A stretch of 64,000 bases of DNA from Nitrososphaeria archaeon (GTDB lineage: Archaea; Thermoproteota; Nitrososphaeria; JACIWG01), in contig CAVVXT010000014.1 of NCBI GenBank assembly GCA_963752255.1, forward strand, positions 64,001 to 128,000. The letters are read 5' to 3'. The notes beneath the pieces were generated by a model. It saw only the letters and a program-made list of their open reading frames with translations, had not been told where the DNA came from and made no database searches. Shown one piece after another: positions 28,656 to 54,187 of this stretch. The position numbers and the translations under genes are program-made. Each line of letters begins with the position of its first letter. Positions within the stretch are counted from its first letter, which is position 1.

Positions 28656-28955
28656 CTTATTTTTGGGCTCAATTAACTTTCCTAAAAGCCATTAAGTGCA
28701 TAGTAATATTATAAACATAAGTTTATGCTCTTAGGTTCACAGCCTTCCGGTGGTTTTGCATCGAACTTTGAGCGTGCTATGAGTGATTCTCGTGAGTTCT
28801 AAATCAAATAGAGAATACCTTTTCTCTTGCAGATTCCGTAGTTTATTTCGTTCAGGAAAAAAATTGGAAGTAATCATGTTCGTGTTCCTCTTATTTTATC
28901 GTAGATTCTAGAAAAGTTAATTTAAAGTACCTATCCATTGCTAGAGTGGCTTAAA

Positions 28956-29020
28956 GGCATACGGTAGTTTGACGGGCAAACCGACCTACAAGGGATGAAG
29001 ATAACATTGCCGTATGCCGA
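28956..29020 (+). ncRNA. Candidate C/D-box-like guide RNA (single C'/D' kink-turn, 13-bp closing stem)
   Basis: GGCATACGGTAGT/ATTGCCGTATGCC stem; CCGA-cc(tacaa)gg-gATGAAGA K-turn; TATA-like TTTAAA at 28921. Confidence 0.6.
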
Positions 29021-29028
29021 GAAAACGT

Positions 29029-29103
29029 GGGCCGATAGTACAGTTCGGTAGCTACGCTCGCCTCGCACGCGAGAGATCGCGGGTTCAAATCCCGCTCGGT
29101 CCA
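29029..29103 (+). tRNA. tRNA-Ala(CGC)
   Basis: CTCGC-CT CGC AC-GCGAG; G3:U70. Confidence 0.94.
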
Positions 29104-29194
29104 CTTCGTTTTAGATTAAGGTTTAGGAATAGAAGGAAGACAATAAAATCATTTAACTAGGTGGGATTCTTATTTTAGTGATGGAAGAGGAAAG

Positions 29195-36633: not shown

Positions 36634-36763
36634 TGGGGCTGGTGGGACTTGAACCCACGGCTTACGGGTTTCTTCACCCAGCTCCAAAACTACATCATCC
36701 CTGTAGTCAATATACCATATCTGTTCTGGAGCCCGTTGTCCTCCCTAGCTGGACGACAGCCCC
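36634..36763 (-). tRNA. tRNA-Trp(CCA) with 56-nt intron (36670-36725) at 37/38
   Basis: ACGGG-CT CCA G|A-CCCGT; 74-nt mature cloverleaf after intron removal. Confidence 0.9.
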
Positions 36764-36855
36764 TCCGACAAGTCATGCTACCATAGGAAGGGAAAATAAA
36801 AGTTTTTTATATCAAAAAAGAAAGCTTAATTAGTAGTTATTTGGGCGGTATTGTT

Positions 36856-36972
36856 TAGCCGGCCATAGTGTTATGGGCTCGACCTGGTCTCGTCAGATCC
36901 CAGAAGTCAAACCATATCACGCCATTGCGTTAGTGATGTGCAGAAGCCGTCGCGAAGCAGTGGTGCTGGCGC
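36856..36972 (+). rRNA. rrf: 5S rRNA (ends approximate), unlinked from 23S
   Basis: GCCGGC/GCTGGC terminal helix; GGCCATAG...ACCTGGTCTCGTCAGATCCCAGAAGTCAA motif. Confidence 0.88.
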
Positions 36973-36997
36973 CTTACAGTAAAAAAGTGAAAAAATA

Positions 36998-54088: not shown

Positions 54089-54187
54089 GGGCCGATAGTT
54101 CAGGGGTAGAATGCACGGTTAAAAACTTCCAAAGAAGTTTTCCGGACTGCATCCGTGAGGTCGCGGGTTCAAATCCCGCTCGGTCCA
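54089..54187 (+). tRNA. tRNA-Ala(TGC) with 27-nt intron (54121-54147) at 33/34
   Basis: G3:U70; the BHB-like fold gives CACGG-TT|TGC AT-CCGTG after splicing. Confidence 0.88.

Follow-up and report, generated by a model that had tools for sequence, protein, structure and literature searches.

The DNA analyzed here, referred to as the window, is a stretch of 64,000 nucleotides (nt) from a Nitrososphaeria archaeon (assembly GCA_963752255.1, contig CAVVXT010000014.1, positions 64,001 to 128,000 of the forward strand). Immediately upstream of a tRNA-Ala(CGC) gene, a hairpin at 28956-29018 carries the sequence features of half a box C/D guide, a small RNA (sRNA) with a single kink-turn. The original prediction, made from the letters alone, had described a 13-bp stem enclosing a D'/C' arrangement, and a second reading of the sequence agreed with it. 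The interior of the hairpin runs, 5' to 3', UU-GACGGGCAAA (28969-28980), CCGA, CC-UACAA-GG, G-AUGAAGA, and UAAC. The minimum free energy of the hairpin is -24.5 kcal/mol (z -3.96), and none of 200 shuffled sequences was as stable. Its stem ends 10 nt before the tRNA, as had been stated, the tRNA being placed by both ARAGORN and Rfam. The features of the locus are collected in Table 1.

Table 1. Features of the hairpin locus in window coordinates, in order along the strand. BHB, bulge-helix-bulge; BRE, B recognition element.
Feature	Position	Strand	Basis or remark
Promoter-like element: purine-rich GAAAAG (BRE-like) and TATA-like TTAATTTAAA	28911-28926	+	Read from the sequence
BHB outer helix, 5' strand GUG	28946-28948	+	Pairs with 29026-29028 (CGU), 3 of 3: one G-C, two G.U; weak
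BHB central helix, 5' strand GCUU	28949-28952	+	Against 29019-29022 (GAGA), 3 of 4: G.A, C-G, U-A, U.G
BHB bulge 1, AAA	28953-28955	+	f1 relatives and other lineages retain an A-rich bulge of 3 nt; the circular contig has its 5' end here
Predicted excised circular sRNA, 70 nt	28955-29024	+	Cuts after the second nucleotide of each bulge
Main stem, 5' arm GGCATACGGTAGT, 13 nt	28956-28968	+	Sequence and fold; outer helix covaries
Spacer/guide UUGACGGGCAAA, 12 nt	28969-28980	+	Heptamer at 28971-28977; position 5 from the D' box is G28976
D'-type box CCGA (CUGA in most relatives)	28981-28984	+	G28983 and A28984 invariant; second letter (3n) varies
Kink-turn C-stem CC/GG with 5-nt loop	28985-28993	+	CC/GG present in 49-52 of the 52 distinct rows
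3-nt bulge G-A-U and C'-type box AUGAAGA (28995-29001)	28994-29001	+	Box conservation; geometry by sequence rules
Short variable 3' linker UAAC, where a second guide would be	29002-29005	+	Length and sequence unconserved, 0-7 nt after the box
Main stem, 3' arm ATTGCCGTATGCC	29006-29018	+	Pairs with 28956-28968, 13 bp including two G.U
BHB 3' side: GAGA (29019-29022), bulge 2 AAA (29023-29025), CGU (29026-29028)	29019-29028	+	Geometry scan; 3' end of the circular contig at 29022-29025
tRNA-Ala(CGC), downstream partner	29029-29104	+	ARAGORN; Rfam tRNA, 60 bits
T-run TTTT, likely end of the transcription unit	29109-29112	+	Read from the sequence; terminator role inferred

The established rules of kink-turn geometry were applied to the sequence. 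They place a Watson-Crick C-stem, a 3-nt bulge, and tandem sheared G.A and A.G pairs inside the hairpin. By these rules, the sheared pairs in the window are G28997.A28984 and A28998.G28983, followed by A28999.C28982 and G29000-C28981. Relatives keep the same order: the C-stem CC/GG, a three-letter bulge R-A-U, the G.A and A.G pairs, a variable 3b.3n pair, and a G-C pair. The C'-type box AUGANGA is invariant save for its fifth letter, which is A, U, C or G among relatives, and the G and A of the CYGA box do not change. The 3b.3n pair is free (A-U in most relatives, A.C in the window, and also U/G, C/G, and others), and the variation of the second D' letter (3n) is what is expected for a kink-turn. 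The loops vary too; in relatives they are often GNRA or UUCG tetraloops. The two strands, CYGA and AUGANGA, are the D' and C' consensus, and the whole arrangement (CYGA, CC-loop-GG, RAUGANGA) is that of the internal C'/D' motif of an archaeal box C/D sRNA.

No terminal kink-turn of box C (RUGAUGA) and box D (CUGA) was found at the hairpin ends or in the flanks, in the window or in relatives. The lack of a recognizable terminal C box had been pointed out before; a terminal D box is missing as well, and the arms of the long helix take up the positions expected for the two boxes. The internal loop is asymmetric: its 5' strand, between stem and D' box, is 12 nt long in the window, the canonical length of an archaeal C/D spacer; across 40 distinct archaeal sequences it measures 13 nt in 19, 12-13 nt in 23, and between 10 and 17 nt overall. 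The 3' strand, after the C' box, varies from 0 to 7 nt.

In a BLAST search against 40 relatives, the element was found upstream of tRNA-Ala in seven genomes of the same family and in one genome of another family, the latter with a different stem sequence. A scan for the core pattern across 185,579 species genomes returned 78 loci, 42 archaeal and 36 bacterial. An enclosing stem of at least 8 bp is present in all 40 distinct archaeal sequences. Flank shuffling put the archaeal median z at -4.2, with none of 200 shuffles as good in 27 of the 40 cases; the 36 bacterial chance matches had a median z of -0.07, and none of them passed the same test.

Alignment with MAFFT followed by RNAalifold missed the outer stem because the linker lengths differ; a covariance model was used in its place, with 13 sequences of the same geometry as its seed. 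With the 40 archaeal sequences aligned to this model, compensatory changes, through which the original prediction had proposed to check the stem in sister genomes, occur at all eight modelled pairs of the outer helix. Paired cells make up 96.9% of this alignment, compared with 35-46% for slid partners. In a larger set of 53 sequences, 11 of 12 pairs have double changes and 93.4% of cells are paired, and the slid-partner control over both alignments gave 25-47%. Both alignments were fitted to the model and are hence biased toward the structure; the flank-shuffle test is independent of them. The sheared G.A/A.G pairs, the CC/GG stem, and a heptamer in the guide strand stay constant while the outer helix covaries, which bears out the description of the element as an atypical half-guide with one kink-turn.

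Of 151 genomes sampled from the class Nitrososphaeria, 107 had a match to the covariance model, in each case a single one (the sample includes one unpublished genome, G131, counted only in the covariance-model and fibrillarin tallies). By family, under our own labels, the genomes with a match number 76 of 81 in f5, 14 of 17 in f7, three of three in f12, seven of nine in f1, and four of nine in f2. The source genome has a single copy, its next best match having an expectation value (E) of 1.6. A second covariance model matched 16 of 16 f5 genomes and, outside the class, four genomes from two other families of the phylum (f25, three of three; f31, one of one); the remaining 100 genomes sampled from the phylum gave no match. 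By these comparisons the element is a gene conserved across the class and not a local oddity, and it is almost certainly a functional kink-turn sRNA. The three f25 homologs (L208, L209, and L211) have an extra 4-bp helix (UGGA/UCCA) beside the guide and the C' box, with a 9-nt insertion in the 3' strand; their guide strand is thereby only 10 nt long.

Boxes and guide alike proved to be conserved in relatives; the guide heptamer, GAYGGGC, is invariant in all 65 distinct hairpins. Its complement, GCCCGTC, occurs once in the rRNA operon of the source genome, in the 16S gene (C14:60854). We take this site to be 16S 1401-1407, with C1402 opposite guide position 5 and the next residue being 1408, the numbering being anchored on the universal heptamer. 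The window guide pairs with 1401-1407 and adds a U.G at 1408, for eight contiguous pairs. The original prediction had asked for the guide to be paired against the 16S and 23S of its own genome and had placed D'+5 on C1402; the 16S part held, and the 23S part failed on a central mismatch at position 8. The register with position 5 on C1402 fits all 65 variants, with eight contiguous pairs in 11 variants, nine in 46, ten in seven, and 14 in one (the last scored against the 16S of the source genome; against the 16S of its own genome the run, read by eye, is 11). A guide of about 12 nt lying directly 5' of a D-type box, complementary to rRNA and with its fifth position on C1402, has the layout of an archaeal C/D guide.

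The variation of the guide fits pairing with 16S. Position 8 varies only between C and U, both of which pair with G1405, and position 11, opposite G1408, is mostly C or U. The 16S residue at 1408, right after the universal GCCCGUC, is G in 14 of the 14 class genomes with a match. At positions 2 and 3 the only exchange is between A and G, toward C1399 and C1400. By our own arithmetic, a random heptamer would cover one of the few universally 2'-O-methylated residues in register with a probability on the order of 1 in 4,000. We consider it likely that the RNA pairs with 16S 1401-1407. C1402 is 2'-O-methylcytidine (Cm) in Pyrococcus abyssi (Cm1376), yeast (Cm1639), and human (Cm1703) (PMC7005279, Table 4), and the corresponding row of PMC11542601 likewise gives Cm. 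The guides known for this residue are the archaeal sR12 and the eukaryotic snR70/SNORD43 (PMC3511168).

In 16S of two f3 genomes (G015 and G036), in which the RNA was not found, U stands instead of C two positions before the heptamer (CACACUGCCCGUC), compared with the source 16S, which lies upstream of the window (G000:C14:60843-60872).

The source genome has genes for fibrillarin, Nop5, and L7Ae. Fibrillarin is present in 150 of the 151 class genomes, and its co-occurrence with the element is uninformative for that reason. Regular expressions for canonical two-motif C/D sRNAs found none in the source genome under strict settings and five under loose settings, with none in the reversed-sequence control; this speaks for few obvious canonical guides, not for their absence. 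The window hairpin has no Rfam match at the gathering score, and allowing E up to 10 brought up only a nematode snoRNA model at 14 bits; the covariance models of the SNORD43/snR70 clan and of other curated C/D families likewise gave no match to the hairpin at the gathering score.

The TATA-like TTAATTTAAA, at 28917-28926, lies about 25-28 nt 5' of 28946-28950, and a block of the promoter-like element, AAAAnnTTAAnTTAAA, is kept in seven aligned relatives from the family. From this position we infer that 28911-28926 is a promoter. A dicistronic unit, in which the sRNA and tRNA-Ala(CGC) would share this promoter, had been suggested from the TATA-like box upstream of the sRNA. It is supported, since only 10 nt separate the two genes and the T-run follows the tRNA. 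The linkage to the tRNA is lineage-specific: the RNA is a stand-alone gene in Nitrosopumilaceae-type genomes. Among 17 loci examined, all 13 from f5, the Nitrosopumilaceae-type family, have no tRNA within 1.5 kb; tRNA-Ala comes next in the two f7 loci, and the two Nitrososphaeraceae-type loci are not near any tRNA.

Together with its flanking sequences, the hairpin base forms a BHB motif, with two 3-nt bulges, a central helix of four positions, and flanking helices, the inner one being the 13-bp stem. In relatives the central helix forms four of four pairs with changing sequence (UCUU/GAGA, UCUU/GGGA, UCUU/AAGA, GUCU/AGAC, GUCC/GGAU, UUCC/GGAA, and GGCU/GGCU), and those that have the motif keep the 3-nt A-rich bulges. 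Because automatic geometry scans are permissive, the claim of a BHB motif is based on the following loci: L004, L006, L007, L008, L012, L062, L065, L067, L074, L127, L153, L154, L208, L209, and L211. BHB motifs are cut after the second nucleotide of each bulge, and any symmetric pair of cuts in the two bulges would give a product of 70 nt. The source genome encodes two splicing-endonuclease paralogs and RtcB.

Among 24 public sequencing runs, one RNA run (X20, a peat metatranscriptome in the form of contigs) contains part of the stretch. The contig is 100 nt long, has a depth of 3.3 and one mismatch (a close relative), and runs from 28953 to 29022 and on again from 28953 to 28981, tracing a circular path of 70 nt. 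A 70-nt circle assembled with 31-letter words would give a contig of 100 letters (70 + 30). A DNA run (X19) is linear through 28908-29103. Two nanopore metatranscriptomes (X23 and X24) contributed no sequence here, which does not speak for absence of the RNA. We regard the contig as a hint of a circular form. It ends 4-7 nt before the RNase P site. The original prediction had considered release by RNase P cleavage; with the BHB flanks and the 70-nt circular contig, release by RNase P alone is unlikely, and we revise this step to BHB cleavage and a 70-nt circle. For this lineage, the balance tips slightly toward excision at the BHB with circularization. A homolog in the f31 genome, from another class of the phylum (G195:C3; L216:170-350, minus strand; guide GACGGGUUUG), lies inside a tRNA-like gene, between the acceptor 5' strand and D region on one side and the T-arm and acceptor 3' strand on the other. 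This gene has an Rfam match to a transfer-messenger-like RNA (tmRNA) model of 23.6 bits, below threshold, and no ARAGORN call; the homolog looks intron-borne.

Several observations weigh against a methylation guide excised as a circle. In Pyrococcus, single-motif "hemi" ribonucleoproteins (RNPs) were active in vitro and not site-specific, and that work calls the two-motif layout absolutely conserved in nature (PMC1635284). The circular junction, as read from the 70-nt circular contig, does not create a second kink-turn either; lacking one, the RNA would be a natural "hemi" C/D guide. The duplex of the window guide is short, with eight pairs and with positions 1-3 beside the box unpaired, and a 7-nt complement would turn up by chance in about 4.5 kb of rRNA roughly one time in four (our own arithmetic). 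The minimum-energy fold from RNAfold favors a local 3-bp hairpin at 28973-28983 (CGG-GCAAA-CCG), which takes letters of the D' box, over the kink-turn. The pairs of this local hairpin never covary (C-G in 40, G-U in 36 and G-C in four, and G-C in 40 of the 40 sequences), so that it can be neither supported nor excluded. The covariance model had no match in f3 (0 of 14 genomes) or f6 (0 of eight), both of which have fibrillarin, and the second model with relaxed filters found none in five f3 and f6 genomes. The Nop5 gene of the source genome (G000:C12:246932-247604; L035:1072-2257), directly upstream of fibrillarin, is split by a frameshift into overlapping frames of 302 and 109 codons. It is a single frame of 390-488 codons in all five relatives checked, the sister genome and four others, and we take the split as an assembly error or a strain defect.

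The excision step meets objections of the same kind. The geometry scans misplace stem ends, and many of the 33 of 97 loci that pass the loose test are spurious. They found no BHB in Nitrosopumilaceae-type (f5) or Nitrososphaeraceae-type genes. Circularity comes from one contig in one run, in which the short side of the joint has 29 letters, fewer than the 31-letter rule, and the joint table is empty.

A longer match to large-subunit rRNA (LSU) just 3' of the A-loop (E. coli ~2555-2563, with position 5 on C2558) had been proposed as an alternative target, and it could be used instead of 16S or besides it. At this site the source LSU reads CTCGCCCATTAAAG, with an A where the original prediction had a G; the site was rejected as a target of the window guide, the A standing opposite position 8. 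Families f1 to f4 share this sequence, and most f5 genomes have CTCGCCTATTAAAA. Every genome with a match (27 of 27) has A opposite guide position 8, which leaves a central mismatch in every lineage with C at that position, including the source. Guides of this kind (44 of the 65 variants) form only four to seven contiguous LSU pairs. The third C of the site, opposite position 7, is replaced in 10 of 10 f5 genomes, by U or, in one genome, by A. Most guides have a C at position 11, which pairs with 16S G1408 and not with the LSU A, and we know of no methylation at the residue equivalent to C2558. The match has its strength in guides with U at position 8, reading GAUGGGCGAA: in 21 of the 65 variants these give at least nine contiguous pairs from position 2 (taking the better of two LSU versions), about as good as with 16S, which counts against the 16S target. 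Lineages with U at position 8 may have a second target in LSU. As the explanation of the element, the LSU site is quite improbable.

tRNAs were also considered as targets and rejected: the best matches have eight or nine pairs, are rich in G.U, and use the unconserved 5' letters of the guide. An antisense scan of the rRNA operon with G.U allowed returned many chance matches of 8-10 pairs and was uninformative.

The same pairing with 16S could serve another end. Bound by L7Ae, the RNA might act as an antisense or chaperone RNA on 16S 1401-1408 during small-subunit assembly, for example by delaying the top of helix 44, or guide another enzyme, in either case with no methylation by fibrillarin. 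A kink-turn and an invariant 16S complement are compatible with this role without any catalysis, guide positions 1-3 are unpaired in many variants, and the missing second motif speaks against a standard methylation RNP (PMC1635284). Yet the box letters are those of the C'/D' consensus and not of just any kink-turn, the spacer measures 12-13 nt in 23 of 40 sequences, and position 5 falls exactly on the one 16S residue with Cm in all three domains (PMC7005279). The class also keeps fibrillarin and Nop5, although few canonical guides were found in the source genome. We think this alternative unlikely. A purely cis-acting role in processing of the tRNA-Ala precursor, as a leader element or an intron-like one that does nothing in trans, would suit the 10-nt distance to the tRNA, the shared promoter, the BHB motif around the hairpin, and the G195 homolog inside a tRNA-like gene; the stand-alone f5 loci, all 13 free of tRNAs within 1.5 kb, and the concentration of conservation in the kink-turn and heptamer instead of the flanks make it very improbable. 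The overall shape (lower stem, internal loop, and kink-turn facing the loop) is also that of a single-hairpin H/ACA-type pseudouridylation guide. We give this idea almost no credence: the window and its relatives have no conserved ACA or ANA box 3' of the stem, just two Watson-Crick pairs lie between the G.A pairs and the loop, and only the 5' strand of the internal loop is conserved, the 3' strand (0-7 nt) being too variable for a two-sided pocket.

A guide of the box C/D type directed at C1402 has known counterparts with which to be compared. sR12-type RNAs have terminal C and D boxes together with internal C' and D' boxes. Set against this general description of sR12, and against SNORD43, the window RNA has one motif, and its far end is a closed helix of 9-13 bp or longer. 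It has in common with sR12 (Pyrococcus, Sulfolobus) and snR70/SNORD43 (U43; Rfam clan CL00059) the predicted target C1402 and the guide logic, in which a strand complementary to GCCCGUC is read at its fifth position upstream of a D-type box (PMC3511168, PMC7005279), and the protein genes of those systems are present in the source genome. The synthetic hemi or half-mer box C/D RNPs of PMC1635284 are alike in having one kink-turn and one guide, the same proteins being assumed. Those are laboratory constructs, whereas the window RNA is natural and conserved across the class, and a long helix secures the far end of its guide at approximately the canonical spacing.

The known guides borne in tRNA introns methylate their own tRNA; the predicted aim of the window RNA is 16S, and its BHB lies in the 5' leader and not in the tRNA body. 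It resembles the C/D guides in tRNA introns (euryarchaeal pre-tRNA-Trp, Nanoarchaeum equitans tRNA-Met) and circular introns excised at a BHB in being part of a tRNA transcript, in its BHB bounds, and in its proposed release as a circle (PMC3491384). For N. equitans, PMC3491384 describes C/D sRNAs that are circular, dicistronic precursors of a tRNA and an sRNA, and a guide carried by a tRNA intron. A proposed circular form and cotranscription with a tRNA link the window RNA to such genes in Pyrococcus and Nanoarchaeum. In the N. equitans genes the tRNA comes first and the sRNA second, with RNase Z setting the sRNA free; the window RNA lies upstream of its tRNA, and the BHB would account for both of its ends.

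In the model that we favor, with moderate confidence, 28946-29028 encodes a half C/D guide of about 70 nt with which fibrillarin methylates C1402. The sRNA would be transcribed from its own promoter together with tRNA-Ala(CGC), and the base of the hairpin would fold with the flanking leader into the BHB. The tRNA-splicing endonuclease would cut both AAA bulges, RtcB would close the 70-nt circle (~28955-29024), and RNase P would afterwards trim the tRNA. L7Ae would bind the single kink-turn (CCGA, the CC/GG mini-hairpin, and AUGAAGA), and Nop5-fibrillarin would dock there. The 12-nt strand 5' of the D'-type box would then pair with 16S 1401-1408 in a pre-30S particle, with the long closed helix standing in for the missing terminal C/D motif and holding the far end of the guide, and fibrillarin would methylate the 2'-OH opposite guide position 5, that is, of C1402.

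More tentatively, it is possible that Nitrososphaeria and some of their neighbors methylate the universally modified decoding-center cytidine by a natural one-motif ("hemi") box C/D RNP. In such an RNP the second kink-turn would be replaced by a closed helix, or by two circular half-guides paired via a Nop5 dimer, and in part of the group the gene would be an intron-like BHB cassette in a tRNA 5' leader. The predicted job, guiding Cm formation in the decoding center, is a known one, unlike the one-motif architecture. Also new are a BHB formed from the hairpin base and its flanks, with a covarying central helix, and the 70-nt circular contig. A literature search whose coverage excluded subscription journals returned no paper on thaumarchaeal C/D sRNAs or on this RNA.

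If true, a hemi RNP would break the rule that natural guide RNPs always have two motifs. Two motifs are thought to be needed for site specificity; a conserved natural guide with one motif would put this rule to the test and serve as a minimal RNP in structural studies. It would further supply the decoding-center Cm guide missing from an ecologically dominant archaeal group, the ammonia oxidizers and their kin. A BHB cassette in a tRNA leader would extend the role of the splicing endonuclease to guide-RNA biogenesis; with its circular product, it would join tRNA processing, intron-splicing enzymes, and the making of guide RNAs, and it would provide a simple route for guides to move between leaders, introns, and free-standing genes.

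Elsewhere in the source genome, a one-sided look-alike at G000 C7:7173 (within C7:7140-7240) has a 12-bp stem, a 12-nt strand, CTGA, a 10-nt loop, and ATGATGA. It has no complement in rRNA, and the opposite strand carries a 553-codon open frame that spans it; it was therefore rejected as a probable chance occurrence. The content of the window is archaeal: Rfam identified the LSU 3' end, 5S rRNA, and an archaeal signal recognition particle (SRP) RNA. The 5S rRNA gene (36855-36974) lies outside the rRNA operon, about 36.6 kb separating it from the LSU end (1-217). Two long Rfam tRNA matches, at 54089-54187 on the plus strand (99 nt) and at 36634-36763 on the minus strand (130 nt), were not called by ARAGORN with default settings; they are probably intron-containing tRNA genes.

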